A stretch of DNA of 54,541 bases from an uncultured Planctomycetota bacterium (GCA_964629945.1 CAZVTD010000002.1:1-54541), one strand, 5' to 3'. Counted from the stretch's first letter, positions 27,024 through 45,158 are shown. Notes: generated by a model from the letters alone, not told the origin. Made by a program: numbers and translations.

Positions 27024-27057
27024 GTCCGGAAAAGCCAGGGAGGTCCGTCATAAGGTA

Positions 27058-27071
27058 TTGGCATATGCCAA
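27058..27071. promoter_or_regulatory. perfect 14-bp palindrome TTGGCATATGCCAA, function unknown
   Basis: Read directly. Lies 35 bp after the ygiQ stop in a 560-bp AT-richer spacer. Confidence 0.25.
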
Positions 27072-27235
27072 AAGCCCAGATAGCCCGGAACTGTCGCATT
27101 TTGCCACAGGTTGCCGGATTCCGACACCCCACAAATCAGGGCAGAATCGGGATCCCCTGCTTAAAAACGACGTAACTTACTTTAAGAAAACAAGTTAGAT
27201 TGACTCAAGATGGCCGATAATTCCTCCGAAAAAGC

Positions 27236-27264
27236 TTGACAGGTCTCGTGATTTGGGGTATATT
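27236..27264 (+). promoter_or_regulatory. sigma70-type promoter TTGACA-N17-TATATT
   Basis: TTGACA at 27236-27241 and TATATT at 27259-27264 with an exact 17-bp spacer. It is the only consensus-quality promoter I found in the window. Confidence 0.6.
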
Positions 27265-27279
27265 GTGATTAGAATCACA
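27264..27279 (+). promoter_or_regulatory. Rex operator, TGTGA-N6-TCACA perfect palindrome (in context TTGTGATTAGAATCACAG), abutting the -10 box
   Basis: TGTGA at 27264-27268 and TCACA at 27275-27279. This matches the published Rex consensus TTGTGAA-N4-TTCACAA, and a rex gene lies downstream. Confidence 0.65.
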
Positions 27280-27581
27280 GCGTTACCGTCATCACGATAG
27301 ATGATTGTGTCCGGTTATGAGCACACGACAAGCCAACAGGTAACGTCCCATGATTCAGGCTCACAAGCACGAGGTCGCGGGGGACCGATATCGTGCGGAT
27401 TCATCGCGCGTGTGTCTGAAGACCGTTGTCCAACTCACCCAGAGGACGACTACGGGAGATCCGTTAAGCGGTTTGAGAGGAAGAGGATGCAGGTTGGCTG
27501 GCTGAACATCGATCAAGGGCATCGGAATCAGTCCGCAGCGGCGCGGCAGTCGGCTGGGGTCGTAACCGAGGAGGGAAACTG

Positions 27582-28193
27582 ATGCTCAGCGACAACGTGG
27601 TGGCCCGGTTGAGTCTTTACCGTCGACTTCTGCGTGTGTTGACCAGCCGCGGTGTGCAGTATGTGTTCAGTCACGAGATGGCGGTGATGGCCCGTGTGAC
27701 GGCTGCGCAGGTCAGGCGGGACGTGATGCAGTTGAATTTTTCCGGGAACCCCGCACGCGGGTATGAAGTGTCCGGACTGATGGAAAGCATCGGGCGTGCC
27801 CTAGACAACCCCGCCGGTGAAGAGGTGGCTCTGGTGGGGATCGGGAAGCGCGGGCGGGCGATCCTGGCCTATTTCGAGGGAAGGCGTCCAAAGCTTCGGA
27901 TCACGGCGGCATTCGACGTGGATCCGGCCAAGGTCAACCGAGTGATTCACGGCTGTCGGTGTCATCACCTGGACGAACTGGAGGGTGTTCTGAAGGAAAA
28001 GGGCATCCGCTGTGCGATTATCACGGTTTCCGTGGACGCGGCCCAGGACGTGGCAACGCGCCTGGTCCAGGCCGGGGTGAAGGGGGTCCTGAACTTCGCC
28101 CCTCGCCCTCTGCAGACGCCCGGGAACGTTTACATGGAGGCGATGGACGTGACGACGGCCCTGGAGCGGGTGGCTTATTTTGCACGACAGTAG
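27582..28193 (+). CDS. rex: redox-sensing transcriptional repressor Rex
   Basis: ARLSLYRRLL..., a Rossmann GxGxxG region VALVGIGKRGRAILAY, and the C-terminal VKGVLNFAP...MDVTTALE. Preceded by GAGGAGGGA. Confidence 0.88.
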   Translation: MLSDNVVARLSLYRRLLRVLTSRGVQYVFSHEMAVMARVTAAQVRRDVMQLNFSGNPARGYEVSGLMESIGRALDNPAGEEVALVGIGKRGRAILAYFEGRRPKLRITAAFDVDPAKVNRVIHGCRCHHLDELEGVLKEKGIRCAIITVSVDAAQDVATRLVQAGVKGVLNFAPRPLQTPGNVYMEAMDVTTALERVAYFARQ

Positions 28194-28244
28194 TCTCCCG
28201 GAAGGCGTCAAGCGAACCGGGGGTTCGATAGACCAGATGAGGAT

Positions 28245-28757
28245 GTGGCGAAAATCTTTGCACGAAAGGAAGGCGAAAACGTGAGTGAGATTGATGTGGG
28301 CACGATATTGGCCGGTTTTCCGAATGCGGGTCGTGATGACCTGATTCCGATCCTGCAGGTCATGCAGGAGCGATGCGGCTATCTTTCGCACGAGGTGGTG
28401 CGACAAGTGGGACGTCACCTGAACCTGCCGGCCAGCAAGGTGTATGGTGTGGCGACGTTCTACAACCAGTTCCGGTTCCAGCCGATCGGCCGGCAGCACG
28501 TCCAGGTGTGTCGGGGGACGGCGTGTCACGTGAAGGGTTCGCTTGAGCTTCTGGAGACGATCGAAGGTGAGCTGAAGATCAAGCCCGGACACACGACGCG
28601 GGACGGGATGTTCAGTCTGGAAGTGGTGGCCTGCCTGGGAGCGTGTGGACTTTCGCCCGTCATGTGTGTCAACGGGGAGTTCCACGCACGCATGACCCCG
28701 GCGAAGGCCAGAACACTCATCGAGGGTCTGCGCAAGGAGGAGGTAGTGACCGCATGA
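28245..28757 (+). CDS. NuoE-like [2Fe-2S] subunit (HydC/HndA type) of a multimeric [FeFe] hydrogenase
   Basis: YGVATFYNQFRFQPIGRQHVQVCRGTACHVKG...VVACLGACGLSPVMCVNG shows the thioredoxin-like 2Fe-2S Cys pattern. The stop overlaps the next start (ATGA). Confidence 0.85.
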   Translation: MAKIFARKEGENVSEIDVGTILAGFPNAGRDDLIPILQVMQERCGYLSHEVVRQVGRHLNLPASKVYGVATFYNQFRFQPIGRQHVQVCRGTACHVKGSLELLETIEGELKIKPGHTTRDGMFSLEVVACLGACGLSPVMCVNGEFHARMTPAKARTLIEGLRKEEVVTA

Positions 28758-31700
28758 GCAAAGCAAATGAAACATTGACCGGACCGGCGGATCATCCCCA
28801 CGTGGCGGACAGCATCGTGATGGAGTATCTGCGTGCGGAGGGTGTGACGCGCACGGCGGAGCACCGTGAGCACATGGAGCGTCTGCGGCGCGAGGACGTG
28901 ACGGTTCCGACGATCTACGTTGGCACAGGGACGTGCGGGCTGGGAGCGGGTGCAGGCAAGGTCCTCAAGGCGATCAAGGCCCACCTGGCGGACAAGAGGA
29001 TCAAGGCAGAGATCGTCGAGGTCGGCTGCGTGGGTCTGTGTGCGTTCGAGCCGGTGATGGACGTGCAGGTCCCGGGACGGCACCGCGTGTCGTTCATGGA
29101 AGTCACCGAGGAGAACGCCGGGAAGATCATCGACGCGATGCTCGCCGGCCAGGTTCCGGAAGAGAACCTGATCGGTCAGTTTCGTTCGTCCAAGACGCAG
29201 GCGTGGGACAACGTGGCCTACCTAGACGAGCATCCGTTCTTCAAGCCCCAGCTGCGGTGGGTTCTGGAGCACAGCGGGATCATCGAGCCGACGAGCATCG
29301 AGGAGTACATCGCGCGGGGCGGCTATCTGACGCTGCTGAAGGCCGTGCGGACCTGGACCCGGGAAGAGATCTGCGACATCATCGAGAAGAGCGGGCTGCG
29401 GGGCCGAGGCGGCGGCGGCTTCCCGACCGGAAAGAAGTGGAAGTTCGCGCTCAAGGAAGCCAGCGACCAGAAGTATCTCATCTGCAACGCCGACGAAGGC
29501 GATCCCGGCGCGTTCATGGACCGTGCGCTGATCGAAAGCGACCCGCACCGACTGCTCGAGGGCATGATGCTGGCCGCGTATGCCATCGGAGCCAACAAGG
29601 CGTACGTGTACATCCGTGCGGAGTATCCGCTGGCCATCCGCCGGCTCAAGACGGCGATCGCCCAGGCCCGTGCATACGGTCTGGTGGGCGAGGACATCAT
29701 GAAGAGCGGTTTCGCGCTGGAGTTCGTGATCAAGATGGGAGCGGGTGCGTTCGTGTGCGGTGAGGAAACGGCGCTCATCCACAGCATCGAGGGGAAGCGC
29801 GGCATGCCGAGACCGAGACCGCCTTATCCGGCGGTGTCGGGTCTGTTCGGGAAGCCCACGGTGATTAACAACGTGGAGACCCTGGCGAACGTTCCGGCGA
29901 TCGTGCGCAACGGTGCGGCCTGGTTTGCCGGCGTGGGGACCGAGAAGAGCAAGGGCACGAAGATCTTCGCCCTGTCGGGGAAGGTCAACCGGACGGGACT
30001 GGTCGAGGTGGCGATGGGCACGACCATCCGCCAGGTGGTCTTCGACATCGGCGGCGGCATCCCGGGAGGCAAGGCCTTCAAGGCGGTGCAGATCGGTGGC
30101 CCGTCGGGCGGATGTCTTCCGACACAACTGCTGGACACGCCAATCGACTACGAGTCGGTGAAGTCGGCCGGCGCGATCATGGGCTCGGGCGGACTGGTGA
30201 CGCTGGACGAGACGACGTGCATGGTGGACCTGGCGAAGTTCTTCCTGCAGTTCGTTCAGAACGAGAGCTGCGGGAAGTGCATCCCCTGTCGCGAGGGGAC
30301 CAAGCGGATGCTCGAGATCCTGGAAGGGATCACGCGTCCCGCGCACCAGGAGCGCGACATGGACGCTCTCACGCGATTCCAGGGCGTGCTGCGTCTGAAG
30401 AACCTCGCCGAGATGATCCGTCAGACGAGCCTGTGCGGACTCGGACAGACGGCACCCAGTCCCGTGCTGAGCACACTGCGGTGGTTCCGAGACGAGTATG
30501 AAGCTCACGTGTTCGAGCGACGCTGTCCGGCGGGGGCCTGCAAGGATCTCGTGGGGGCGGTGTGCCAGAACGCGTGTCCGGTGGGGACGGAAGTGTGGCG
30601 TTACGTGGCGCACGTGGCCCGCGGGGAATACGAGGACGCTTACCGGACGATCCGCAGTGCGAACCCGTTCCCGTCGGTCTGCGCGCGCGTGTGCAACCAT
30701 CCGTGCGAGGCATATTGCCGGGCGGGTGCAACCGGTGGAGAGGCGATCGCGGTCCGGACCCTGAAGCGTTTCGTGGTGGATCATGTGTCCCCGAGCGCGT
30801 TCTTCGAGGAAGTCAAGCCCGCAGCCGCCGACGCCCCACGCATTGCCGTGGTGGGCGCCGGACCGGCGGGTCTCACCGCGGCACATCAACTGAGCAAGCT
30901 GGGCTTCCTGGTGACGATCTTCGAGCGCGAATCCGTGGCGGGTGGGATGCTGAGAGCAGGCATCCCGGCGTACCGGCTGCCCCGGGCACGCCTGGAGGAG
31001 GAGATCGAGCTGCTGCTGAACGGGAACGTGGAGCTGAAGCTGAACCAGGAACTGGGGAAGGACTTCACGGTCGATTCGCTGCTGAAGCAGGGATACAAGG
31101 CGGTGTATCTGGCGATGGGTGCGCACGCCAGCCGGAAGCTGGGTGTTCCGGGTGAAGACGTCGATGGCGTCATCCACGGCATCCGCTTCCTGAAGGCCTT
31201 CAACCTGGCGGGCAAGTCCCTGGCCAAGGGCAAGGTGGGCATCATCGGTGGCGGGAATTCCGCGCTGGACGCGGCCCGTGTGGCGATTCGTCAGCAGGGC
31301 GTCGAGGCGGTCACGATCTACTATCGTCGGACACGTCACGAGATGCCGGCGTATGCCGAGGAGATCGAGGCGGCGCTGGAGGAAGGCGTCCAGCTGAAGA
31401 CGCTGGTGTCTCCGGTCGAAGTGCTGTCCAAGGGAGGCAAGCTCACGGGTGTGAAGTTCCTCAAGAACGAGCTGGGTCCCGCGGACGCCAGTGGACGGCG
31501 AAGTCCCGTGCCGGTTCCGGGCACGGAGTATGTCGAGGAGATGGACACGCTGATCGTGGCCATCAGTGAGAACCCGGAGACGACGGCCGTCGACGGTGGA
31601 CTGAAGCGGAGTCGCGACGGACGGGTGACGGTGAGCTCGGAGTCGCACGCGACGGACCGTGAAGGCGTCTTCGCGGGTGGCGACGTCGTGAGAGGTCCCA

Positions 31701-31996
31701 ACACGGTGATCGAGGCCATCGCGGACGGGAAGCACGCGGCCCGCATGATCTACAATTACGTGACGGGTCGGCTGCTGAAGACGCTTCCGAAGGTCCGCAT
31801 GCCGAGCTTTTACATCGAGCCTCTGGAGGAAGAGGAAGAGCCTCCGGTCAACCGGATCGCCTCTCCCACGCTCGGTGTTTCGGAGCGACGCGGGAACTGT
31901 GATGAAGTGGAGTTGTGTGTTTCGGAAAGCGCCGCGCGTTGCGAAGCGAGGCGGTGTCTGCGCTGCGACCTGAGCTTCACGCAGCCGAGGTCATGA
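28754..31996 (+). CDS. fusion protein: NuoF-like flavoprotein (HydB type; NADH/FMN/4Fe-4S) joined to a GltD/NfnB-like FAD-NAD(P)H oxidoreductase module
   Basis: N-terminal half: GLRGRGGGGFPTGKKWKF, ICNADEGDPGAFMDR, ESCGKCIPCREG. From about 30.5 kb: CPAGAC...CQNACP...ANPFPSVCARVCNHPCEAYC, IAVVGAGPAGLTAAHQL, VGIIGGGNSALDAARVA. Start ATG 28754 (MSKANETL). Confidence 0.85.
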   Translation: MSKANETLTGPADHPHVADSIVMEYLRAEGVTRTAEHREHMERLRREDVTVPTIYVGTGTCGLGAGAGKVLKAIKAHLADKRIKAEIVEVGCVGLCAFEPVMDVQVPGRHRVSFMEVTEENAGKIIDAMLAGQVPEENLIGQFRSSKTQAWDNVAYLDEHPFFKPQLRWVLEHSGIIEPTSIEEYIARGGYLTLLKAVRTWTREEICDIIEKSGLRGRGGGGFPTGKKWKFALKEASDQKYLICNADEGDPGAFMDRALIESDPHRLLEGMMLAAYAIGANKAYVYIRAEYPLAIRRLKTAIAQARAYGLVGEDIMKSGFALEFVIKMGAGAFVCGEETALIHSIEGKRGMPRPRPPYPAVSGLFGKPTVINNVETLANVPAIVRNGAAWFAGVGTEKSKGTKIFALSGKVNRTGLVEVAMGTTIRQVVFDIGGGIPGGKAFKAVQIGGPSGGCLPTQLLDTPIDYESVKSAGAIMGSGGLVTLDETTCMVDLAKFFLQFVQNESCGKCIPCREGTKRMLEILEGITRPAHQERDMDALTRFQGVLRLKNLAEMIRQTSLCGLGQTAPSPVLSTLRWFRDEYEAHVFERRCPAGACKDLVGAVCQNACPVGTEVWRYVAHVARGEYEDAYRTIRSANPFPSVCARVCNHPCEAYCRAGATGGEAIAVRTLKRFVVDHVSPSAFFEEVKPAAADAPRIAVVGAGPAGLTAAHQLSKLGFLVTIFERESVAGGMLRAGIPAYRLPRARLEEEIELLLNGNVELKLNQELGKDFTVDSLLKQGYKAVYLAMGAHASRKLGVPGEDVDGVIHGIRFLKAFNLAGKSLAKGKVGIIGGGNSALDAARVAIRQQGVEAVTIYYRRTRHEMPAYAEEIEAALEEGVQLKTLVSPVEVLSKGGKLTGVKFLKNELGPADASGRRSPVPVPGTEYVEEMDTLIVAISENPETTAVDGGLKRSRDGRVTVSSESHATDREGVFAGGDVVRGPNTVIEAIADGKHAARMIYNYVTGRLLKTLPKVRMPSFYIEPLEEEEEPPVNRIASPTLGVSERRGNCDEVELCVSESAARCEARRCLRCDLSFTQPRS

Positions 31997-32050
31997 AAGA
32001 CAGATCTGCCTCCGGGCAGACAGGAAATGAGCGACACGAGGGAGTAGCGG

Positions 32051-33772
32051 ATGATAACGATAGAAGTGGACGACCGGAGTTTCCAGGCGCGAGAAGGCGA
32101 GACGATCCTGTCGGTTCTGAAGCGTGAGGGCATCAGTGTTCCGACGCTCTGTCACGTGGAGGGACTTCCCCCGACCGGAGCGTGCCGACTGTGTCTGGTG
32201 GAGTTGGTGGGTCCCGGGACACTGGTGCCGTCGTGTTCCTTTCCCGTGGCGAACGGGATGAAGATCAGGTCCAATTCGGCGAAGGTTCTGCACGCGCGAC
32301 GGACGATCCTGGAGCTGCTCCTTGCCGACCATCCCGACGACTGTCTGTATTGCAGTCGAAACGGAAATTGTCAGCTCCAGCGGCTTGCGGAAGAGCTGGG
32401 TGTGCGTGAGCGGCGGTACCACGGTCACAAGAACAGTCGCGACATGGACGTTTCCAGTCCGTCGATCATTCGTGATCCGGACAAGTGCGTGCTGTGCGGG
32501 AAGTGTGTCCGGGTTTGCGAAGAGGTCCAGGGGGTGGCGGCCATCGACTTCATCGGTCGCGGCGCCAAGACCACCGTGGGCACCGTTTTCGACACCGGAC
32601 TGAACCTGTCGAGCTGCGTTAACTGCGGACAGTGCATCCTCGCCTGTCCGACCGGCGCCTTGAGCGAGCATTCGTACGTGGATGACGTGGTGGCGGCCCT
32701 GTCGGACCCGAGGAAAACCGTGGTGGTCCAGCACGCGCCGGCCGTGTCCGTCTCCCTGGCGGAGGAGTTCGGCGTGAAACCGGGCAAGGACATCGACGGA
32801 AAGATGGTCGGCGCCCTGCGTCAGGTGGGCTTCCGCTGGGTGTTCGACACGTCGTTCAGCGCGGACCTGACCATCATGGAAGAGGGTTCGGAGCTGGTCG
32901 AGCGGATCAAGACGGGCGGGGTGCTGCCCCTGTTGACAAGCTGCTCCCCCGGCTGGATCAAGTTCGTGGAGCAGTTCTATCCCGAGTTCATTCCCAACGT
33001 TTCGACGTGCAAGAGTCCCCAGCAGATGCTGGGCGCCCTGATCAAGAGCTACTTCGCCGAGAAACAGGGGCTGAACCCTGAAGAGATCGTGAGCGTTTCG
33101 ATCATGCCCTGCACAGCCAAGAAGTTCGAGTGCAGTCGTGAGGAGATGTCGCAGGATCACGTCCCCGACGTGGACTACGTGCTGACGACCCGTGAACTCG
33201 GAGCCCTGCTGCGGATGGTCGGGGGCGATCACGTCAACATGAAACCTGCCCCGGCGGACACGCCCTTCGGCGAGCGTTCCAGCGCGGGGAAGATCTTCGG
33301 GGCATCGGGCGGCGTGATGGAAGCGGCCATCCGAAGTGCACACTACCTGCTGACCGGTCAGGAGCTGGCGGACCTGAAGGTCGAGCCGGTTCGTGGTCTG
33401 GACGGGATCAAGGAGGCGCACCTCAAGATCAACGGGCTGGAAGTCGGCGTGGCCGTGGTGAACGGATTGGGAAACGCCCGGAAGCTCCTCGACCAGCTGC
33501 GTGCCGGCCGGAAGGACCTTCACTTCATCGAGGTGATGACCTGTCCGGGCGGCTGCATCGGTGGCGGCGGTCAGCCGATGGGCGCCGACATCAACGCCCT
33601 GAAGGCGCGTATGCAGGCCCTGTATCGGATCGACCGTGACGAGACGCTCCGTGTCAGTCACAAGAACGAGATGGTGCAGCGTCTGTATAAGGAATTCCTG
33701 GGACAACCTCTGGGCGAGGTCAGTCACCGCCTGTTGCACACACACTACCACCACCGTGACGTGGCCGTGTGA
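32051..33772 (+). CDS. hydA: [FeFe] hydrogenase catalytic subunit (M3-type: 2Fe-2S, His-ligated 4Fe-4S, two ferredoxin clusters, H-domain)
   Basis: HPDDCLYCSRNGNC; CVLCGKCVRVCEE; CVNCGQCILACPTGA. H-cluster motifs are TSCSPGW (L1, with a Ser variant), MPCTAKKFE (L2) and EVMTCPGGCIGGGGQP (L3). Confidence 0.9.
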   Translation: MITIEVDDRSFQAREGETILSVLKREGISVPTLCHVEGLPPTGACRLCLVELVGPGTLVPSCSFPVANGMKIRSNSAKVLHARRTILELLLADHPDDCLYCSRNGNCQLQRLAEELGVRERRYHGHKNSRDMDVSSPSIIRDPDKCVLCGKCVRVCEEVQGVAAIDFIGRGAKTTVGTVFDTGLNLSSCVNCGQCILACPTGALSEHSYVDDVVAALSDPRKTVVVQHAPAVSVSLAEEFGVKPGKDIDGKMVGALRQVGFRWVFDTSFSADLTIMEEGSELVERIKTGGVLPLLTSCSPGWIKFVEQFYPEFIPNVSTCKSPQQMLGALIKSYFAEKQGLNPEEIVSVSIMPCTAKKFECSREEMSQDHVPDVDYVLTTRELGALLRMVGGDHVNMKPAPADTPFGERSSAGKIFGASGGVMEAAIRSAHYLLTGQELADLKVEPVRGLDGIKEAHLKINGLEVGVAVVNGLGNARKLLDQLRAGRKDLHFIEVMTCPGGCIGGGGQPMGADINALKARMQALYRIDRDETLRVSHKNEMVQRLYKEFLGQPLGEVSHRLLHTHYHHRDVAV

Positions 33773-33786
33773 GGACGGGGACCGAG

Positions 33787-34257
33787 ATGAAACAGGGTGA
33801 CGAAAACAAAAACAAAGGACTGACGATGAACCAAGCGAAGAAGAAAATTCTGGTGGTGGACGACGATCCGGACATTATCGTACAGCTGAAGGCCCTCCTG
33901 GATCAGGAGTACGTGGTGGAGACGGCCCCCCCGGGGGCCGAGGCGGAGGAGATCCTCATGGGTTCGCGTCCGGATCTGGCGATCATCGACCTGATGATGG
34001 AGACGCGTGACTCCGGCTTTATGCTGTGTCACAACATCAAGCGACTGTATCCCGGGACCCCCGTCATGATGCTGACGGGAGTCAAGGCCACCACGGGCAT
34101 GTCGTTCACGGCCGGACCGGGTGAAGAAGACTCGTGGTTCGAGGCCAACCTTCTGCTGGACAAGCCTGTGCGTCCCGATCAGCTCCGCAGGGACGTTCGG
34201 CGACTTCTGAGCAAGGATCCACAGGCGAAGAAGGAAGGGGCTCATAAGAAAGGGTGA
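33787..34257 (+). CDS. stand-alone response-regulator receiver (REC) protein
   Basis: KILVVDDDPDII...PDLAIIDLMME...VMMLTG...LLDKPVRPDQL. There is no output domain. The start could be ATG 33826 or GTG 33769. Confidence 0.8.
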   Translation: MKQGDENKNKGLTMNQAKKKILVVDDDPDIIVQLKALLDQEYVVETAPPGAEAEEILMGSRPDLAIIDLMMETRDSGFMLCHNIKRLYPGTPVMMLTGVKATTGMSFTAGPGEEDSWFEANLLLDKPVRPDQLRRDVRRLLSKDPQAKKEGAHKKG

Positions 34258-36287
34258 GGGGACGTCGAGAAAAGGACGCAGGCGTCATGGGCGCGACCCG
34301 GTTTGTAGAGACCATCAAAGAGCGCTGCAGGATGTGCTACACGTGCGTGCGCGAGTGCCCTGCCAAGGCGATCCGGATTGTTGAGGGACAGGCCGAGGTG
34401 ATGGGGGAGCGGTGCATCGCCTGTGGAAACTGTGTGCGGGTCTGTTCCCAGAAGGCCAAGCAGGTCGTGCACTCGGTGAAGGAGGTGGAGGACCTTCTTG
34501 CGGGGGACGTCGACGTCGCGGCCATCCTGGCACCGAGCTTCCCGGCGGAGTTTGCCGAATGCGACTACGAACGGGTCGTCGGGATGCTCCGGGCGCTGGG
34601 GTTCACCTACGTTAACGAAGTGGCCTTCGGTGCAGACCTGGTGGCCGACTGGTACCGACGCACGCTGCAGAACGGGGATTCCTCCCGTCAGATCGCAACG
34701 GCTTGTCCGGCGGTCGTGGCCTACGTGGAGAAGCACCAGCCGGACCTGATCAAGAGTCTGGCCCCGGTCGTTTCGCCCATGATCGCGACGGCACGAGCCC
34801 TGCGACAGATCCACGGACCGGCACTCCGGGTGGTCTTCATCGGTCCCTGCGTGGCCAAGAAGGCGGAGATGCAAAGCTCTCCCGTTTCCGGAGAGGTCGA
34901 CGCCGTCCTGACCGTCGTCACCCTGCGCGAGATGCTGAAGGCACATGATCTCACCCCGGAAAGTGTATCGCCCAGTGATTTCGACGAGCCTCGGGGAGGG
35001 TTGGGCGCCCTCTTCCCCATCAGCCGGGGAATGCTGCAAGCCGCGGGACTCAACGAGAACCTCATGAACGGGGAGGTCGTCACCACGGAGGGTCGGACGA
35101 ACTTCGTGGAAGCCCTGGAGGAATTCCCCCGTGGCGACGTTCGGACCCGGCTGCTCGAAGTCCTGGCCTGTCAGGGATGCATTCTCGGTCCGGGCATGAG
35201 CCACCGGACGCCCCTGTTTTCGGCACGGGCCCGCGTCGCACACTACGTGACGGAACGGACCAAACGACAGGACCTGGAAGCCTGGCGCAAGCAGGTGGAG
35301 AGCTTCAGGAACCTGGACCTCGCCCGCACGTACGAGGCGAGTGATCAGCGAATCTGGCCCCCAGAGGAGCACGAGATCCAGCAGATCCTCATCAACATGG
35401 GGAAGAAGTCCATCCAGGATGAGCTGAACTGCGGGGCATGCGGATACGACACCTGTCGCGAGCACGCCGTGGCGATCCACCGGGGACTGGCCGAGAGCGA
35501 GATGTGTCTGCCTTACACCATCGACCAGCTTCGCAAGACGATCCAGGACCTTGCGGTCACAAACGATCGTCTGGCGAATACCCAGGCGGCACTGATCCAG
35601 TCCGAGAAACTGGCCAGCATGGGACAACTGGCCGCCGGGATCGCCCACGAGGTAAACAACCCCCTGGGTGTCGTCCTCATGTATGCCCATCTCCTTCAGG
35701 ACGAACACGGGAAGGATCCCACGATGGCGGCCGACCTCGACATGGTTGTCCGTCAGGCGGACCGCTGTCGCAAGATCGTCGCCGGACTGCTTCATTTCGC
35801 CCGTCAGAACAAGGTGGTCAGGGAGCCGACGGACGTTCGGAAGCTGGTGGAGGAGACCCTCCGTGCCTTGAGTCCACCCGACAACGTCCAGGTGGTCATC
35901 GACTGTCAGATGAAGGACCCGATCGCTGAGCTGGACCATGACCAGACCTGTCAGATGCTGACCAACCTGATCACCAACGCCTACGCGGCCATGAGCGATC
36001 GGAACGGGACCCTCACGGTGCTCATCGAAGAGAAGGGAGATGACGTGCTGTTTTCGGTCATCGACACCGGTGTGGGGATCAAGCCGGAGCACATGTCGAA
36101 GATCTTCGAGCCGTTCTTCACCACCAAGCAAATCGGCAAAGGCACCGGACTGGGACTGGCGATAACGTACGGGATCGTTAAGATGCACCGTGGGGATATT
36201 TCGGTGAAATCCAATGCGGACCCTGCCAAGGGGCCGACGGGCACAACATTTACCGTGAGGCTGCCCCGCAAGGGGCAGGAGGATTGA
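34254..36287 (+). CDS. [FeFe]-hydrogenase-like sensory domain fused to a histidine kinase (HydS-like, kinase-linked)
   Basis: Two ferredoxin motifs (CRMCYTCVRECP, CIACGNCVRVC). H-domain-like motifs ATACPAVV, GPCVAKKAE, LACQGCILGPG. CGACGYDTC-N16-C motif. Then a coiled linker and the kinase boxes GIAHEVNNPLG (H), LTNLITNAYAAM (N), DTGVGI, GKGTGLGLAI. Alternative start ATG 34287. Confidence 0.85.
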   Translation: MRGRREKDAGVMGATRFVETIKERCRMCYTCVRECPAKAIRIVEGQAEVMGERCIACGNCVRVCSQKAKQVVHSVKEVEDLLAGDVDVAAILAPSFPAEFAECDYERVVGMLRALGFTYVNEVAFGADLVADWYRRTLQNGDSSRQIATACPAVVAYVEKHQPDLIKSLAPVVSPMIATARALRQIHGPALRVVFIGPCVAKKAEMQSSPVSGEVDAVLTVVTLREMLKAHDLTPESVSPSDFDEPRGGLGALFPISRGMLQAAGLNENLMNGEVVTTEGRTNFVEALEEFPRGDVRTRLLEVLACQGCILGPGMSHRTPLFSARARVAHYVTERTKRQDLEAWRKQVESFRNLDLARTYEASDQRIWPPEEHEIQQILINMGKKSIQDELNCGACGYDTCREHAVAIHRGLAESEMCLPYTIDQLRKTIQDLAVTNDRLANTQAALIQSEKLASMGQLAAGIAHEVNNPLGVVLMYAHLLQDEHGKDPTMAADLDMVVRQADRCRKIVAGLLHFARQNKVVREPTDVRKLVEETLRALSPPDNVQVVIDCQMKDPIAELDHDQTCQMLTNLITNAYAAMSDRNGTLTVLIEEKGDDVLFSVIDTGVGIKPEHMSKIFEPFFTTKQIGKGTGLGLAITYGIVKMHRGDISVKSNADPAKGPTGTTFTVRLPRKGQED

Positions 36288-36311
36288 GGTCCGGACCCAA
36301 GGAGGCCTGTC

Positions 36312-36689
36312 ATGGCAAAGGTATTGCTGGTGGATGACGACGAGGACCTGGTGACGATGAACAGGAAAGTCCTGGAAGCACGGGGACACCAGGTGCTGAG
36401 CGCCTTCTCGGGAAAGGAAGCGCGTGAGGTTCTGAAGAAAGAAGCCCCGGACGTGGCGGTCCTGGACGTGATGATGGAGTCGCTCAGCGCGGGTTTTGAA
36501 CTCGCACGAGAGATGAATCGAACCCACCCGAAAATGCCGATACTGATGTTGTCGGGCATCGAGGAAAAGACGGGTCTCGGTTTCAAGGGGCTCGAGGACG
36601 ACCAGTGGCTCCCCGTTTTCAGGTTCATCGATAAGCCGCTTTCACCCGACAAATTGGCTGAAAAGGTGGAAGAAGTCCTGAAGAAGTGA
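36312..36689 (+). CDS. stand-alone response-regulator receiver (REC) protein, paralogous to 33787-34257
   Basis: KVLLVDDDEDLV...PDVAVLDVMME...ILMLSG...FIDKPLSPDKL. Confidence 0.85.
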   Translation: MAKVLLVDDDEDLVTMNRKVLEARGHQVLSAFSGKEAREVLKKEAPDVAVLDVMMESLSAGFELAREMNRTHPKMPILMLSGIEEKTGLGFKGLEDDQWLPVFRFIDKPLSPDKLAEKVEEVLKK

Positions 36690-36720
36690 GGGGACGAAAC
36701 GCCCAGAGGAGATCAGGGAC

Positions 36721-37887
36721 ATGGAAACTCTACGTGTTCTGGTGGCGGACGACGAGCCGGGGATGCGTATGGGGGCGGCGCGTGCCCTGAAGGATCTCCG
36801 CATGAAATTGCCCGCCATGGAGGAAGAATACGGCCTCAGCATCTCGGAGGCGGCTTCCGGGGAGGAAGCCATGGAGTTCATCCGGAAGAACGGCACGGAC
36901 ATCCTGCTGCTGGACCACAAGATGCCCGGAATCTCGGGACTCGATCTCCTGCGCACGCTTGCCGAAGAGCAATACGACGTCCTCGCGATCATGATCACCG
37001 CCTACGCGTCACTCGACGTGGCCATCTCGGCAACACGTCGCGGCGCGTACGATTTCCTCGCCAAGCCATTCACCCCGGAAGAGTTGAGGGGGACCGTGCG
37101 CAAAGCAGCCAAGCACGTGCTCCTCGAACGCCAGGCCCGCAGGCTTGCCGAGGAAAAGAAACAGGTCCGCTTTCAGTTTCTGTCGGTCCTCGCCCACGAA
37201 CTCAAGGCCCCCCTGGCCGCCCTGGAAGGATATCTCCAGATCCTGGGCAACAAGTCGCTGGGCAACGATCCGGCGGCGTATGAAGGGATGATCGACCGGT
37301 GTCTCGTGCGCTCCGAGCACATGCGCAAGCTCATCACCGACCTGCTCGACCTCACACGGATCGAGTCCGGTCAGAAACGCAGGACGCTGAGCATGGTTGA
37401 CGTTGCCGAAATCGCTCGCCTGGCGCTGGAGACGGCGGGACCCCAGGCGGCGGAGCGCCAGATCAACCTCAAGCTGGAGTCGGCCGGTCCCGTGACGATG
37501 CAGGCCGATGCGGGCGAAATCGAGGTCATTCTCAACAATCTCGTCTCCAATGCGGTAAAATATAATAGGCAGGAAGGCAAGGTCACGGTCACGCTGGATC
37601 GGGAGGCTGATAGGGTCAGGATCGCGGTGTCCGACACCGGCATCGGTATCCGTCCGGAGGACCGCGAAAAACTGTTCACGGAGTTTTTCAGGGTGAAAAG
37701 CGAACAGACGCGTTCGATCTTGGGAAGCGGTCTGGGTTTGTCGATCGTGCGGAAGCTGGCAATGCTGTATGGCGGCGAGGCGACCGTGGAAAGCGAGCCG
37801 GGGAAAGGCTCGACGTTCACCGTCACGCTGCGAGATGAGCCGCCCGGGGGGGCCAATGAAGCACCAAGGACCCGGGAGGTGAATTGA
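36721..37887 (+). CDS. hybrid receiver-histidine kinase (N-terminal REC + HisKA + HATPase_c)
   Basis: LRVLVADDEPGM...DILLLDHKMPGISG...FLAKPF; H-box FLSVLAHELKAPLAAL; N/G boxes LNNLVSNAVKYN, DTGIGI, GSGLGLSIV. Confidence 0.88.
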   Translation: METLRVLVADDEPGMRMGAARALKDLRMKLPAMEEEYGLSISEAASGEEAMEFIRKNGTDILLLDHKMPGISGLDLLRTLAEEQYDVLAIMITAYASLDVAISATRRGAYDFLAKPFTPEELRGTVRKAAKHVLLERQARRLAEEKKQVRFQFLSVLAHELKAPLAALEGYLQILGNKSLGNDPAAYEGMIDRCLVRSEHMRKLITDLLDLTRIESGQKRRTLSMVDVAEIARLALETAGPQAAERQINLKLESAGPVTMQADAGEIEVILNNLVSNAVKYNRQEGKVTVTLDREADRVRIAVSDTGIGIRPEDREKLFTEFFRVKSEQTRSILGSGLGLSIVRKLAMLYGGEATVESEPGKGSTFTVTLRDEPPGGANEAPRTREVN

Positions 37888-37888
37888 A

Positions 37889-38944
37889 GTGGCTGGTCTG
37901 AGTCGTGCGGAGGTGCTGAAATGGCTGTGCACGGAGGACGAGGAGGCGCTGTGCGAACTCCGTGAGCGTGCCGATGCGGAGCGTCGGCGACGGGTCGGGG
38001 ACCAGGTCCACCTGCGGGGACTCATCGAGATATCCAACCACTGCGTGCGAAGCTGTCATTACTGTGGTCTGCGCGGACCGAACCACGGGCTGAAACGGTA
38101 CCGTCTCACCCGGGAACAGGTGCTCCAGAGCGCCCGGCTGGCGTTGAGCCTGGGTTATGGAACGGTGGTGATCCAGTCCGGAGAGGACCCGGGTCTCACG
38201 AGCGACTGGGTGACGGAACTGATCGAAACCATCCGTCGACAGACCCGGCTTGCGGTAACACTCAGCCTAGGAGAGCGTTCGGACGAGGAGTTGGCCGCGT
38301 GGCGATACGCGGGAGCCGACCGTTATCTCCTGCGCTTCGAGACGTCCAGGCGGGATCTCTACGAACGCATTCATCCGCCTCTCGCGTCGACACCCAGTGA
38401 TCGCATCCGCCTGCTGAGACGGCTTCGGGAGCTGGGCTACGAGATGGGCACGGGAATGATGATCGGAATCCCGGGGCAAACCCTCGAAGACCTGACCGAT
38501 GACATCATGCTGCTGGCCGAACTCGACCCGGACATGATCGGTCTGGGGCCGTTCGTTCCTCATCCGGATACGCCGCTGGGCAAGGTGGTCCCGGTCACTT
38601 CCGGACAGGCTCCCAATTCGGAAAACATGGTTCTCAAGGTACTGGCTTTGGTGAGGCTGGTCTGTCCGATGTCGAACATCCCGGCGACAACGGCACTGGC
38701 CTCGATCGACCCCGAAGGGGGATATGAAGCCGGGCTGCGTTGGGGCGCAAATGTGATCATGCCCAACGTCAGTCCGGCCGAGGTGCGCAAGTTCTATCAG
38801 ATTTACCCGGGAAAGGTGTGTGTCACGGAGACCATCGAGTTTCATGAGCGCCTGGTCCGTCGGATTCAGGAGATGGGACGCAGCGTGGGTGTCGGACGGG
38901 GCGACTCGGCGGCCTACCTGGCGCGACAGAAGGGAGCGGTGTAG
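37889..38944 (+). CDS. hydE: [FeFe] hydrogenase H-cluster radical SAM maturase HydE
   Basis: LIEISNHCVRSCHYCGLRGPN is a CX3CX2C motif in HydE/BioB-like context. Length is 351 aa. GTG start lies 1 nt after the upstream stop. Confidence 0.85.
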   Translation: MAGLSRAEVLKWLCTEDEEALCELRERADAERRRRVGDQVHLRGLIEISNHCVRSCHYCGLRGPNHGLKRYRLTREQVLQSARLALSLGYGTVVIQSGEDPGLTSDWVTELIETIRRQTRLAVTLSLGERSDEELAAWRYAGADRYLLRFETSRRDLYERIHPPLASTPSDRIRLLRRLRELGYEMGTGMMIGIPGQTLEDLTDDIMLLAELDPDMIGLGPFVPHPDTPLGKVVPVTSGQAPNSENMVLKVLALVRLVCPMSNIPATTALASIDPEGGYEAGLRWGANVIMPNVSPAEVRKFYQIYPGKVCVTETIEFHERLVRRIQEMGRSVGVGRGDSAAYLARQKGAV

Positions 38945-38946
38945 AG

Positions 38947-40371
38947 ATGACTGACCTGGCCCAGATGACGTTGAGTCGCGGGGCGGTGGATTTTATCAAC
39001 GATGATGAGCTGACGAACCTGCTGGCGCAGCCAAGTCCGCAGCCGGAGCGAGTCCGCGAGGTGATCGCCAAGAGCCTCGCGAAGGAACCCCTGACCGTTG
39101 AGGAGACGGCCGTGCTGCTGCGGGCCGAGGACCCCGAGATGGTGAACGAGATCTTCGAGGCGGCACGCCGACTCAAGCGGGAGGTTTACGGAAACCGGAT
39201 CGTCCTGTTCGCCCCGCTGTATATCGGAAACTACTGCGTGAACGACTGCGCCTACTGCGCGTTCAAGCGCTCGAACCGCGAGGCGGTAAGGCGCACGCTG
39301 ACCCGTGACGAACTGGTCGGACAGGTGGAAGCCCTGGAACGCCAGGGGCACAAACGCCTCATCCTGGTCTTCGGGGAGCATTCGGCCTACAACGCGGATT
39401 TCATCGCGGACTGCGTGCGGACCGTGTATGGCGTGCGTCTCGGACATGGCGAGATCCGGCGGGTGAACATCAACGCGGCCCCACTGGACCACGAGGGATA
39501 CCGCAAGGTCAAAGAGGCCGGGATCGGCACATATCAGGTCTTCCAGGAGACTTATCACCACGCAACCTACGAACGCTATCATCCGGCCGGGACACGCAAG
39601 GGAGATTTCCAGTACCGTCTGGACGCCCTGAGCCGGGCCATGGAGGCCGGCCTCGACGACGTCGGCATCGGAGCGCTGTTCGGACTCTACGACTGGCGTT
39701 TCGAAGTCCTGGGACTGGTCTCTCACGCGCGATATCTCGCCGAACGGTACCACTGCGGACCACACACCATCAGCTTCCCCCGACTGCGTCCGGCGGCAGG
39801 GGTCCGGTTCGACGAAAAATGGTTCGTCCGTGACGAGCACTTCAAACGTGTCATCGCGATTCTGAGACTCGCGGTGCCTTATACGGGACTGATTCTCACG
39901 GCCAGGGAAAACCCCGAGCTTCGACGGGAGGTCATGGCCTTCGGCGTCTCCCAGATCGACGCCGGCAGCCGCATTGAAATTGGCGGCTACACCGAGGCGG
40001 GCGACGCCCAGGTGATGGAGCGTGAGCAGTTCTCGCTCGGGGACATCCGGTCGCTGGACACCGTCATGCGCGAACTGATGGCGGATGGGTACGTCCCCAG
40101 CTTCTGCACGGCGTGCTATCGCCTGGGACGCACCGGTGAGCATTTCATGGAGTTCGCCATCCCGGGGTTCATCCGCAACTTCTGCACACCCAATGCGCTT
40201 TCAACGCTTGAGGAATACCTCGTCGATTATGCCTCTCCGGAGACGCGCAAAACGGGTGAGACGCTCATCGCCCGCGCACTCGATGCGATGGACGAAGGGC
40301 CGGTCAAGACGGAACTGATCGAGCGGCTGAAACGCATCAAAGCAACCGACGACCGCGACCTCTATTTCTGA
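38947..40371 (+). CDS. hydG: [FeFe] hydrogenase H-cluster radical SAM maturase HydG
   Basis: PLYIGNYCVNDCAYCAFKRSN, with a ThiH-like body and the C-terminal Cys motif PSFCTACYRLGRTGEHF. Length is 474 aa. Confidence 0.9.
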   Translation: MTDLAQMTLSRGAVDFINDDELTNLLAQPSPQPERVREVIAKSLAKEPLTVEETAVLLRAEDPEMVNEIFEAARRLKREVYGNRIVLFAPLYIGNYCVNDCAYCAFKRSNREAVRRTLTRDELVGQVEALERQGHKRLILVFGEHSAYNADFIADCVRTVYGVRLGHGEIRRVNINAAPLDHEGYRKVKEAGIGTYQVFQETYHHATYERYHPAGTRKGDFQYRLDALSRAMEAGLDDVGIGALFGLYDWRFEVLGLVSHARYLAERYHCGPHTISFPRLRPAAGVRFDEKWFVRDEHFKRVIAILRLAVPYTGLILTARENPELRREVMAFGVSQIDAGSRIEIGGYTEAGDAQVMEREQFSLGDIRSLDTVMRELMADGYVPSFCTACYRLGRTGEHFMEFAIPGFIRNFCTPNALSTLEEYLVDYASPETRKTGETLIARALDAMDEGPVKTELIERLKRIKATDDRDLYF

Positions 40372-40389
40372 GCCGAACCGGAGACGCAC

Positions 40390-41802
40390 ATGAGCGAATA
40401 CCGCACCGAGAAAGACCTGCTGGGCGAATACCAGGTGCCCGCCAACGCGCTCTTCGGGGTTCACACCGCGCGCGCCATCGAGAACTTCCCTCTGGCCCGA
40501 CGGAAGGTCAACCCGGCCCTGATCCACGCGTACGGACAGGTGAAGCTGGCCTGCACGCGCACCAATCGTGAACTCGGGTTCCTTCAGGACACCATCGCGG
40601 CGGCGTTGGAAAGGGCCTGCGACGAACTTGCCGAGGGACTTCTCGACGAACACATCGTGGTGGATGCCCTCCAGGGAGGCGCCGGAACCTCGACGAACAT
40701 GAACGTCAACGAGGTGCTCGCCAACCGTGCACTCGACATCCTGGGTAAGCCGCGCGGCGACTACGTCACGATCAGTCCCCTCGGTCACGTGAACCTCCAC
40801 CAGTCCACCAACGACACTTACCCGACGGCGCTGAAGGTGGCGGCGATGCGTCGGCTGGACGTCCTGGAGCGGGAGGTCGTCGGACTTCAGGAGGCATTCC
40901 AGAAGAAGGAAAAGGAATTCGCCCACGTGGTGAAGGTAGGCCGAACGCAGCTCCAGGACGCCGTGCTCGTGACACTGGGTCGCGAGATGTCGGCTTACGC
41001 CGAGGCGTTCGCACGTGATCGCTGGCGCGTTTATAAGTGCCGGGAACGCATCCGCGTAATCAACCTCGGCGGAACCGCCGTCGGCACGGGACTGGGTGCG
41101 CCGCGGCGCTATATCTTCCGCGTCATTGAGCAGCTTCGCGAGATCACCGGACTCGGACTCGCACGCGCCGAGAACATGGTCGAAGCCACCCAGAACACCG
41201 ATGCCTTCGTCGAGGTCTCCGGCATCCTCAAGGCCCTGGCTTCGAACCTCCTCAAGGTCGCTACGGATCTCCGCCTCCTCTCCTCGGGACCCGTCGCGGG
41301 ACTGGGCGAACTGCATCTTCCCCCGCGACAGGCCGGCAGTTCCATCATGCCGGGGAAGGTGAACCCCGTGATCCCCGAGGCCGTGTCCCAGGCGGCGCTC
41401 GTCGTCTTCGGAAACGACCAGGCCCTGACCATGGCTTGTTCACTCGGCAACCTCGAACTCAATGCTTTCATGCCGCTGGTGGCCGACGCCCTTCTCGGAA
41501 GCATCGACCTCCTGATTGGAGCCTGTGACATCCTCCGAAGGCTGTGTGTCGAAGAACTCCAGGCCGATGAAGTGCGCTGCCGTGCTGCGGTCGAAACCGC
41601 CACGGCCAGCGTGACGGCGCTGGTGGAGCGGATCGGATACACCCAGGCGCAGGAGGTTGCCAAGTCCGCGGCGGCCCAGGGGAAATCCGTCCGTCAGGTC
41701 GTCCTGGAAAAAGGACTGCTCCGTCCTGAAGAGTTCGACGCACTCATCTCGGCCGAACGCGTCACCCGTCTGGGTTCCCCCGACACGGAGATCAACCGAT
41801 GA
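40390..41802 (+). CDS. aspA: aspartate ammonia-lyase-like protein (class II fumarase/aspartase superfamily)
   Basis: MSEYRTEKDLLGEYQVPANALFGVHTARAIENF... and the superfamily signature GSSIMPGKVNPVIPE. The stop overlaps the hydF start (ATGA). Confidence 0.85.
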   Translation: MSEYRTEKDLLGEYQVPANALFGVHTARAIENFPLARRKVNPALIHAYGQVKLACTRTNRELGFLQDTIAAALERACDELAEGLLDEHIVVDALQGGAGTSTNMNVNEVLANRALDILGKPRGDYVTISPLGHVNLHQSTNDTYPTALKVAAMRRLDVLEREVVGLQEAFQKKEKEFAHVVKVGRTQLQDAVLVTLGREMSAYAEAFARDRWRVYKCRERIRVINLGGTAVGTGLGAPRRYIFRVIEQLREITGLGLARAENMVEATQNTDAFVEVSGILKALASNLLKVATDLRLLSSGPVAGLGELHLPPRQAGSSIMPGKVNPVIPEAVSQAALVVFGNDQALTMACSLGNLELNAFMPLVADALLGSIDLLIGACDILRRLCVEELQADEVRCRAAVETATASVTALVERIGYTQAQEVAKSAAAQGKSVRQVVLEKGLLRPEEFDALISAERVTRLGSPDTEINR

Positions 41803-43046
41803 TCAAGACCCCGAAAGGACTTCGACTGCACATCGCCCTCTTTGGCCGACGGAACGTCGGCAAATCGTCGCTCCTCAATGCGCTCACCCGCCAGGAGGTC
41901 TCCATCGTTTCCGACATCGCGGGAACGACCACCGACCCCGTGGAAAAACCTATGGAGCTTCTGCCCATCGGTCCCGTACTGTTCATCGACACGGCCGGCA
42001 TCGACGACGTGGGTGCTCTCGGTCAGATGCGCGTGCAGCGGACTCGCAAGATTTTCGACCGTGCGGACGTGGGCGTCGTGGTGACCGAAGCCGGGACGTG
42101 GGGAGAGTTCGAGCAGGCCATCCTCGACGAACTGACCCGCCGGAAGATCGCACCCATCGTGGTCTTCAACAAGATCGACCTCGCGCCACCCGACCAGGCA
42201 CTGATCGCGCGGCTGAAGCAGGACAAGATTCCCATGCTGCTGACCTCGGTCCCGAAGGACGGCGAGGTCCGGGGAATGCTCGATTTCCGCGAAGCCCTCA
42301 TCCGGCAGGCCCCCGAAGAGTTCATCAACGCCCCCACCATCCTGGGCGACCTGGTCCGTGCCGGGGAACTGGCCGTGCTCGTGGTTCCCATCGATCTGGA
42401 AGCCCCCAAGGGTCGGCTCATCCTGCCCCAGGTCCAGGCGATCCGGGACGTGCTGGACAACGACGCCTACTGCATGGTCGTGAAAGAGCGGGAGCTGCGC
42501 GACGCGCTCGACGGACTCAAGCGGCCGCCGAAGATCGTCGTCACCGATTCGCAGTCCTTCCTCAAAGTGGCCGGGGACACGCCGCCCGAGATTCCGATGA
42601 CGTCCTTTTCCATCCTCTTCGCGCGTTTCAAAGGCGACTTGAACACCCTGGTTCGGGGCGCACTGGCCATCGAAACCCTGCACCCGGGAGATCGCGTGCT
42701 CGTGGCGGAGGCCTGTTCGCATCACCCCATCGGCGACGACATCGGGCGCGTCAAAATACCACGCTGGCTCACCCAATACATCGGTGGAAAAGTGGAGTTC
42801 ACCACCGTCCAGGGGCACGATTTCCCCGACGATCTCTCCGGATACAAGCTGGTCATCCACTGCGGAGCCTGCATGTGGAATCGTCGCGAGATGCTGACGC
42901 GGATGATGAAATGCCGCGAGGCTGGCGTGCCCATCACGAACTATGGCGTCGCCATCTCCTATCTCCTGGGAATCTTCGAACGAGCGCTCTCGCCCTTCCC
43001 GGGAGCACTCGAAGAACTGGCACGGACACGAAAATCCGGTTCGTGA
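41799..43046 (+). CDS. hydF: [FeFe] hydrogenase H-cluster maturation GTPase HydF
   Basis: P-loop ALFGRRNVGKSSLLNAL, DIAGTTTD, NKIDL. C-terminal cluster Cys residues EACSHHP and IHCGACMWNRREM. Confidence 0.9.
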   Translation: MIKTPKGLRLHIALFGRRNVGKSSLLNALTRQEVSIVSDIAGTTTDPVEKPMELLPIGPVLFIDTAGIDDVGALGQMRVQRTRKIFDRADVGVVVTEAGTWGEFEQAILDELTRRKIAPIVVFNKIDLAPPDQALIARLKQDKIPMLLTSVPKDGEVRGMLDFREALIRQAPEEFINAPTILGDLVRAGELAVLVVPIDLEAPKGRLILPQVQAIRDVLDNDAYCMVVKERELRDALDGLKRPPKIVVTDSQSFLKVAGDTPPEIPMTSFSILFARFKGDLNTLVRGALAIETLHPGDRVLVAEACSHHPIGDDIGRVKIPRWLTQYIGGKVEFTTVQGHDFPDDLSGYKLVIHCGACMWNRREMLTRMMKCREAGVPITNYGVAISYLLGIFERALSPFPGALEELARTRKSGS

Positions 43047-43088
43047 TTGGCCGGTCGCTCCTCTTCATCGACCTGCCGCACGCCATGT

Positions 43089-45059: not shown

Positions 45060-45158
45060 AGCGGGTTCGTCCTTGCGATTCACGTGTCTCAAGGCAGCAC
45101 AGTTTCCTGGAAATGAAACTATAGCCCGAAGCACGTCAAGTGCAAGGAGATGTTGTCG

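Follow-up and report, generated by a model that had tools for sequence, protein, structure and literature searches.

A 54,541-nt stretch of DNA from an uncultured Planctomycetota bacterium (CAZVTD010000002.1; here called the window, in whose coordinates all positions are given) carries what we read, at a probability of roughly 0.7, as a Rex-repressed [FeFe]-hydrogenase cluster with an H2-sensor kinase in a Phycisphaerae-like planctomycete. Open reading frame (ORF) calls together with Pfam and NCBIfam searches place twelve consecutive co-directional genes at 27582–43046, all on the plus strand, in the order rex, hydC, hydB-GltD, hydA, REC1 (a receiver), hydS-HK (a hydrogenase-like histidine kinase), REC2, REC-HK (a receiver-kinase), hydE, hydG, aspA and hydF. 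The initial annotation of this DNA had listed the same genes in the same order and had proposed profile hidden Markov model searches as a check, and these searches bore out every gene identity, that of aspA at the level of its family. It had begun the locus at 27236, a position that proves to be the −35 hexamer of the promoter and not a gene start, the rex coding sequence beginning at 27582. The 4-nt ATGA overlaps it described at 28754 (hydC/hydB) and 41799 (aspA/hydF) are present, whereas its upper limit of 55 nt on the gaps falls: after revision of gene starts the successive intergenic gaps measure 87, −4, 54, 53, 29, 24, 31, 1, 2, 18 and −4 nt, the largest following from a hydC start at 28281. 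This GTG is most likely the start of hydC, over the alternative at 28245, on the evidence of a AAGGAAGG ribosome-binding site and the JGI gene call. REC1 begins at ATG 33787 or 33826. A further GTGA overlap that had been considered at 34254 is probably unused, because JGI calls the gene (P0001, 666 aa) from ATG 34287, a start in line with the N-termini of family members in alignment A1, which holds 20 relatives of the sensor at 61–73% identity.

A sigma-70-type promoter on the plus strand at 27236–27264 heads the locus, reading TTGACA-17 nt-TATATT with 11 of 12 consensus positions and standing as the best site in the 17.5 kb from 26500 to 44000. Its −10 hexamer and the expected transcription start are overlapped by a predicted Rex operator (ROP) on the plus strand at 27263–27280, TTGTGATTAGAATCACAG, which carries one mismatch to TTGTGAnnnnnnTCACAA and is the sole palindrome of this kind in the 54.5-kb window. 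The first gene, rex (27582–28193, plus strand), encodes a 203-aa NADH/NAD+-sensing repressor with the Pfam domains Put_DNA-bind_N (PF06971; an N-terminal winged helix) and CoA_binding (PF02629), NCBIfam scores of 187 for NF003995 (cut-off 126) and 159 for NF003996 (cut-off 138), and a Rossmann NAD(H) domain in which the GxGxxG motif is present as GIGKRG. Because a single operator proves little alone, we examined relatives for Rex boxes. Related loci, 82 in all, were obtained through a metagenome scan with alignment A1 and searched with the window proteins by tblastn; a single-protein scan of genome contigs returned one full-length relative (L001). A box with at most two mismatches lies 35–140 nt upstream of rex in 18 of 29 related rex-carrying loci, three further cases (L098, L099 and L100) bring the total to 21 of 32, and in three loci where rex does not precede hydC (L071, L077 and L079) the box stands directly upstream of hydC. 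Across the same loci we counted 19 sites in ~14 kb upstream of rex or hydC versus 19 in ~552 kb elsewhere (~1.3 versus ~0.03 sites per kb), an enrichment of ~38-fold. In Caldicellulosiruptor bescii, electrophoretic mobility shift assays show that Rex binds ahead of its own gene, of hydG and of the FeFe hydrogenase genes, with the operator consensus TTGTGAA-N4-TTCACAA (PMC6391272). Given the conservation of the box at the operon head in relatives and this precedent, Rex control of the window promoter, as the initial annotation had proposed, is well supported by sequence comparison. Some relatives carry additional boxes, one in the REC-HK/hydE gap of L098 (14056–14073) and a perfect one in L099 (19020–19037) preceding a second hydCBA set whose HydB is short, and in such relatives Rex would therefore govern the maturases or a second hydrogenase separately.

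Between the Rex box and the rex start lies a 5′ leader of ~300 nt (27281–27581, plus strand). We considered a riboswitch, an attenuator or a small gene in this interval and obtained support for none: RNA structure in the leader is not above expectation (z = +0.71), Rfam gives no match, and Pfam gives none for its internal 93-aa ORF. An assembly artefact was also considered, as the JGI contig with P0001 ends inside rex. A second, independent JGI assembly (L102) spans the region and differs from the window by 25 mismatches over 20 kb, with none between promoter and rex; because the sequence is identical there, we conclude that the join is no artefact of assembly.

The four genes following the promoter include those for a HydABC-type hydrogenase. 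HydC (28281–28757, plus strand; alternative GTG 28245) is a NuoE-like [2Fe-2S] subunit of 158 aa in the JGI call (Pfam 2Fe-2S_thioredx, E = 5e-49). HydA (32051–33772, plus strand; 573 aa) is the catalytic [FeFe]-hydrogenase, with Pfam Fe_hyd_lg_C (2e-94), Fe_hyd_SSU, Fer2_4 and NADH-G_4Fe-4S_3, an NCBIfam NF040763 score of 825 (cut-off 765), and as closest solved structure a bifurcating HydA1 chain (8a6t_A, E = 4e-186); A. woodii HydA1 (7q4v_A) is also a strong match. With H-cluster motifs and N-terminal [2Fe-2S]/[4Fe-4S] domains in HydA, a NuoE-like HydC, and a NuoF-like HydB that has a flavin mononucleotide (FMN)/NADH site, the enzyme shares these features with the electron-bifurcating HydABC hydrogenases of group A3. 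Motif L1 of HydA (residues ~295–301) reads TSCSPGW, as in A. woodii HydA1 (7q4v), and places a serine at the position of CpI C300, presumably a cysteine ligand of a [4Fe-4S] cluster. We do not regard TSCSP as an anomaly, since it is a common variant found in A. woodii HydA1 and noted by Zheng & Huang (PMC11406978); our literature search on the motif returned nothing relevant.

HydB (28754–31996, plus strand; 1080 aa) carries Pfam Complex1_51K, NADH_4Fe-4S, Fer4_20 and Pyr_redox_2 matches that describe a NuoF-like FMN/NADH part, then Fer4_20, then a flavin adenine dinucleotide (FAD)/NAD(P)-binding domain. Residues 58–603 match HydB/NfnB/StnB structures, and the GltD-like portions of StnC (8oh5_C) and NfnA (9n5u_A) are the matches to residues 603–1072, so that HydB is fused to a GltD/NfnB-like module. 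The Bfu definition requires the ferredoxin-type clusters B3 and B4 at the C-terminus of HydB (Schut 2022, PMC9304861). No ferredoxin-type Fer4 domain (2x[4Fe-4S], clusters B3/B4) was found by Pfam after NADH_4Fe-4S, placing this HydB outside that definition, with the GltD-like module in the position of the two clusters. Because B3 and B4 are missing, NADP(H) may take the place of ferredoxin as electron partner, and a ferredoxin-independent, NADP(H)-linked reaction is a reasonable guess for HydABC enzymes of this GltD type. Three observations accompany this subunit. Its C-terminus (~31890–31996) ends in a Cys-rich tail, CVSESAARCEARRCLRC, after the FAD/NAD(P) domain, which may bind an additional metal or cluster. 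The hydB–hydA gap holds a hairpin, CTGCC-tccg-GGCAG, at ~32006–32019, without a U-run on the plus strand, which could be an element of mRNA processing or stability. A genuine gltB–gltD glutamate synthase pair lies 2.5 kb upstream of the locus (19070–25058, minus strand), so the genome holds a free GltD besides the GltD-like module fused to HydB.

The second hydrogenase-like protein is of the sensory type. HydS-HK (34287–36287, plus strand; 666 aa) combines a sensory-type [FeFe]-hydrogenase with a histidine kinase (Pfam Fer4, Fe_hyd_lg_C, FeS PF04060, HisKA and HATPase_c). In alignment A1, the eight N-terminal cysteines of two [4Fe-4S] motifs, the H-cluster ligands C140, C188, C295 and C298 (P0001 numbering), which align with HydA motifs L1–L3, the APS motif, the Lys and Glu of GPCxAKKxE, and the Cx2Cx4Cx16C motif (C382, C385, C390 and C407; Pfam FeS PF04060) are invariant in all 20 relatives. 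The sensor reads ATACP where HydA reads TSCSP, putting Ala at the CpI C299 proton-relay position (Thr in most relatives), and GPC in place of MPC, putting Gly at the M353 position. Loss of the proton-relay Cys C299 and a change at M353 are reported for sensory HydS (PMC8163306), and the retention of all H-cluster cysteines with loss of the relay Cys supports the earlier view of this protein as a hydrogenase-like sensor. Kinase-type BfuT proteins classify as C3 in HydDB (Zheng & Huang, PMC11406978). The last Cys is followed by about 45 residues, predicted to be helical, before the phospho-accepting His. A search for a hidden PAS or output domain found none: a relaxed Pfam scan (E <= 1) detects no PAS domain in HydS-HK, and an AlphaFold2 (AF2) model, of low confidence, places helices 411–429 and 434–474 from the last Cys to the H-box without a PAS-like sheet. 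The mean predicted local distance difference test score (pLDDT) of the model, 68, is too low for a fold search, and our search turned up no sensory HydS of solved structure for comparison.

The sensor gene is accompanied by three further signalling genes. REC1 (33787–34257, plus strand; alternative start 33826) is a stand-alone receiver with Response_reg as its only Pfam match even at E <= 1, REC2 (36312–36689, plus strand; 125 aa) is a second stand-alone receiver (Response_reg, E = 5e-19) without an output domain, and REC-HK (36721–37887, plus strand; 388 aa) joins Response_reg to HisKA and HATPase_c. The H-box and the N, G1, F and G2 boxes are readable in the translations of both kinases, and the acidic pocket, phospho-Asp, Thr/Ser and Lys are kept in all three receivers. 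Pfam, including the relaxed scan, finds no Hpt/Spo0B-like, DNA-binding or other output domain in the window proteins. The initial annotation had called this set a phosphorelay; because it has no Hpt and no output domain, that term is too strong, and multi-kinase two-component module is the better name.

The maturation set is complete, as had been claimed. HydE (37889–38944), HydG (38947–40371) and HydF (41799–43046; Pfam HydF_dimer and HydF_tetramer), all on the plus strand, score above their NCBIfam equivalog cut-offs (TIGR03956, 333 versus 255; TIGR03955, 506 versus 312; and TIGR03918, 559 versus 326, respectively). Between hydG and hydF lies an aspA-like gene of the aspartate ammonia-lyase family (40390–41802, plus strand; Pfam Lyase_1 and FumaraseC_C), whose product scores 642 for NF008909 (cut-off 510) and 513 for the equivalog TIGR00839 (cut-off 681). 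The pairing of aspA with hydF is already on record, and in vitro AspA can provide ammonium/nitrogen for the bridging ligand of the H-cluster (JBC 2024, PMC11736057); the adjacency of aspA and hydF in the window, with its 4-nt overlap, fits that association.

These components suggest the following mechanism. At low NADH/NAD+, Rex would bind the palindrome over the −10 hexamer and start site of a strong promoter and keep rex and the downstream genes off; as NADH rises, Rex would be released from the DNA and the derepressed cluster would then probably be read as a single unit. Its products would be, first, a HydABC-type [FeFe]-hydrogenase in which the ferredoxin-side clusters of HydB are exchanged for a GltD/NfnB-like NAD(P)H-FAD module; second, a group C-like sensory [FeFe]-hydrogenase fused to a histidine kinase, with two receivers and a receiver-kinase; and third, HydE, HydG, AspA and HydF, which would build the H-clusters of both hydrogenase proteins. 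H2 would bind the slow-turnover H-cluster of the sensor and its iron-sulfur chain would be reduced. Because the helix leading into the phospho-accepting His begins at the last cluster (Cx2Cx4Cx16C), kinase activity would depend on the redox state of this cluster; transfer of phosphate to the receivers and the receiver-kinase would follow, in an order that we infer.

Comparison with related loci shows that the arrangement recurs. The sensor-kinase family comprises at least 8000 candidate matches, and the top matches listed are at least 60% identical; named members among the matches listed come from Planctomycetota/Phycisphaerae, Hydrogenedentes, Latescibacteria and Verrucomicrobia, with one member from Neomarinimicrobiota. 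In 44 of 58 loci (76%) hydA is the gene immediately before hydS-HK, hydC-hydB-hydA precede the sensor in 30 of 38, a REC-HK ortholog follows hydS-HK in 58 of 59, and hydG and hydF occur within 8 kb downstream of the sensor in 11 of 31. Metagenome contigs L025 and L028 carry the identical 12-gene order; L097, the closest relative, follows it as far as the contig end inside hydB, and forms lacking the GltD module are present in several phyla (L022, L024, L057, L098 with 12 genes, L099 with 11 genes, and others). The locus had been described as unusual; since the same order recurs in L025 and L028 and variants occur elsewhere, we regard the arrangement as recurrent and conserved, shared by many uncultured anaerobes, and not as an oddity. 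Among loci with sufficient upstream sequence, a receiver gene between hydA and hydS-HK is found only with GltD-type HydB, in 11 of 11 such loci versus 0 of 19 others, counts that ignore phylogeny, and this rule holds across at least two divergent lineages. In this comparison L023, L025, L027, L028, L047, L050–L052, L055, L059, L068, L075, L081, L082, L086 and L090–L092 were set against the other loci, and shorter GltD contigs agree. A second hydC/short-hydB/hydA set with its own receiver gene follows REC-HK or hydF in L081, L082, L090–L092, L096 and L099, the shorter of these contigs showing only the leading genes of the set. HydS-HK and REC-HK pairs with no hydCBA within 10 kb upstream occur in L053, L058 and L072, so the sensor module is not always tied to a hydrogenase operon.

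A neighbouring gene agrees with the earlier placement of the host. For the glutamate synthase large subunit, the named best matches are all Planctomycetota, the top one being a Phycisphaerae bacterium at 72% identity, and the host is a member of Planctomycetota, probably of Phycisphaerae. Elsewhere in the window, a 2094-aa ORF (12719–19003, plus strand) has zero Pfam matches and is also called as a gene in the independent assembly L102.

A number of observations weigh against our reading of the locus. We know of no [FeFe] sensor-kinase that has been biochemically tested and of no [FeFe] sensory hydrogenase that has been shown to signal. The window Rex box stands 320 nt from the rex ATG, compared with 35–140 nt in relatives, and at this distance a second promoter may lie nearer rex. 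Neither the whole window nor the gene tables of six annotated related clusters contain a DNA-binding response regulator, which leaves feedback of the kinase pathway onto the locus no more than plausible. In 13 of 31 loci no maturase gene lies within 8 kb downstream of the sensor, the maturase block is more than 400 nt away in L001 and L057 (REC-HK–hydE gaps of ~460–530 nt), and that of L098 has its own Rex box; because it is absent, distant or separately boxed in these relatives, the maturase block is a separable module.

The lack of a DNA-binding regulator bears on the target of the kinase module. It is possible, though not the reading we favour, that this module regulates other targets (for example a fermentation switch) or acts by protein contacts, and is co-located with the hydrogenase merely for shared maturases and expression conditions. 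Besides DNA-binding response regulators, neither a sigma-54 activator nor an Hpt domain is found in the window or the annotated relatives, and the three loci with HydS-HK and REC-HK pairs more than 10 kb from any hydCBA would suit such a module; against this, HydS-HK directly adjoins hydA in 76% of loci, and known HydS genes are co-located with the trimeric hydrogenases they supposedly regulate (PMC8163306). A bolder and very improbable version is that the stand-alone receivers are themselves the output, contacting the hydrogenase complex or Rex directly, in an H2 pathway without a transcription factor of its own. The absence of a DNA-binding regulator from the window and the annotated related clusters, the near-obligatory pairing of REC-HK with the sensor, and the confinement of the hydA/hydS-HK receiver gene to loci with GltD-fused HydB all allow it. 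If it were true, the sensing of H2 and that of NADH would meet physically at a single promoter or enzyme.

The separability of the maturases raises the question of how many transcripts the locus yields. A rather unlikely alternative to a single Rex-controlled unit is modular accretion, in which a Rex-controlled rex-hydCBA core is joined by sensor-kinase and maturase modules with promoters of their own. Such an origin fits the loci without maturases (L016 and L100 among them), the wide REC-HK–hydE gap in L001 and L057, the box ahead of hydE in L098, and the order in L071 and L076, where rex-hydS-HK-REC-HK come before the maturases and hydCB. The window itself argues for one unit: its junctions span only 1–87 nt with two 4-nt overlaps, no terminator-like site on the plus strand is found in any intergenic gap of the 12-gene locus, no second promoter-like site of at least 10/12 occurs in 26500–44000, and a convergent gene (43089–45134) follows 3′ of hydF. 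With all gaps at or below 87 nt, the twelve genes are probably carried on a single transcript. Improbable, finally, is the proposal that HydS-HK is no H2 sensor but a redox-sensing kinase whose iron-sulfur clusters report the poise of ferredoxin or NAD(P)H, or that it has an incomplete H-cluster: three accessory cluster motifs, the low confidence of the AF2 model around the cluster sites, and the H-cluster motifs missing from some kinase-domain group C1 proteins (Zheng & Huang, PMC11406978), a further point against our reading, would accord with it, whereas the H-cluster cysteines, APS motif and GPCxAKKxE Lys/Glu are invariant in the 20 relatives and maturases are often co-located.

Several known systems resemble parts of the predicted Rex-repressed cluster. 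Like the PAS-type HydS of Thermotoga maritima (group C, M2f class), the window sensor has two N-terminal [4Fe-4S] motifs, all H-domain cysteines, loss of C299, Gly for M353, a C-terminal Cx2Cx4Cx16C, and a gene beside a group A trimeric hydrogenase; unlike it, the window sensor is without PAS, its cluster domain running directly into HisKA and HATPase_c, and its partners are receivers and a receiver-kinase. In the [NiFe] systems HoxBC-HoxJ-HoxA and HupUV-HupT-HupR, H2 is reported by a histidine kinase under the control of a slow sensor hydrogenase, sensor and kinase being separate proteins joined through PAS and the output being an NtrC-type DNA-binding regulator. The logic of a sensor hydrogenase acting on a kinase is the same in the window, but the metal centre is unrelated and no NtrC-type regulator is present. 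Stn/NfnABC (Nfn-Bfu) transhydrogenases share the combination of a HydB/NuoF-like core with a GltD/NfnB-like FAD-NADP(H) module; there, the GltD-like module sits in a HydA-like subunit without an H-cluster, whereas in the window it sits on HydB and HydA keeps its H-cluster.

The closest published relatives are the BfuABC enzymes of Hydrogenedentota, in which sub-type V has a His-kinase BfuT and sub-type I a DPD_II/FAD BfuB that also occurs in Planctomycetota and whose chemistry is given as unknown (Zheng & Huang 2024, PMC11406978). The window matches these in its kinase-fused sensor (Hydrogenedentes P0060 and P0067 are 62% identical to it), in a HydB with the same GltD-like C-terminus as sub-type I BfuB, and in the TSC[S]P variant of motif P1 that HydA shares with Hydrogenedentota BfuA. 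It differs in pairing a sub-type I-like HydB with a kinase sensor, bfuT there occurring only with sub-types IV and V, in its Rex and response regulators, which that work does not mention, and in its host phylum, Planctomycetota. In groundwater Elusimicrobia of lineage V, Rex lies near a HATPase-fused group C hydrogenase that adjoins a trimeric group A enzyme (bioRxiv 10.1101/765248, 2020), and these bacteria bring together Rex, kinase-fused sensor and trimeric hydrogenase as the window does; that account is a brief remark, with no operator analysis, receivers, receiver-kinase, GltD fusion or linked maturase block. The Rex regulon of C. bescii likewise places Rex operators at FeFe hydrogenase genes and at rex, the operator of the window being a prediction, but there, in a Firmicute, the targets are spread over separate operons and the hyd operon does not open with rex (PMC6391272).

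Every element, and the association of Rex, sensor-kinase and HydABC itself, has thus been seen before, and the window adds an example and no new principle. The near-obligatory REC-HK partner and the restriction of the receiver gene to loci with GltD-fused HydB are not mentioned in the related literature we found, and we found no report on the biochemistry of a HydABC enzyme with GltD-fused HydB. What the window contributes is a planctomycete example together with comparative support for Rex control, and a sensor paired with a HydABC whose ferredoxin-side module is of the NADP(H) flavin type. This significance is shared by the whole locus family, which is widespread and partly described. The direct fusion of sensor and kinase offers a simple readout, autophosphorylation under H2 versus argon, and with the sensor, its likely partners and the maturases on one DNA fragment, the locus lends itself as a compact system in which to test H2 sensing by an [FeFe] sensor-kinase as well as the HydABC form with GltD-fused HydB.

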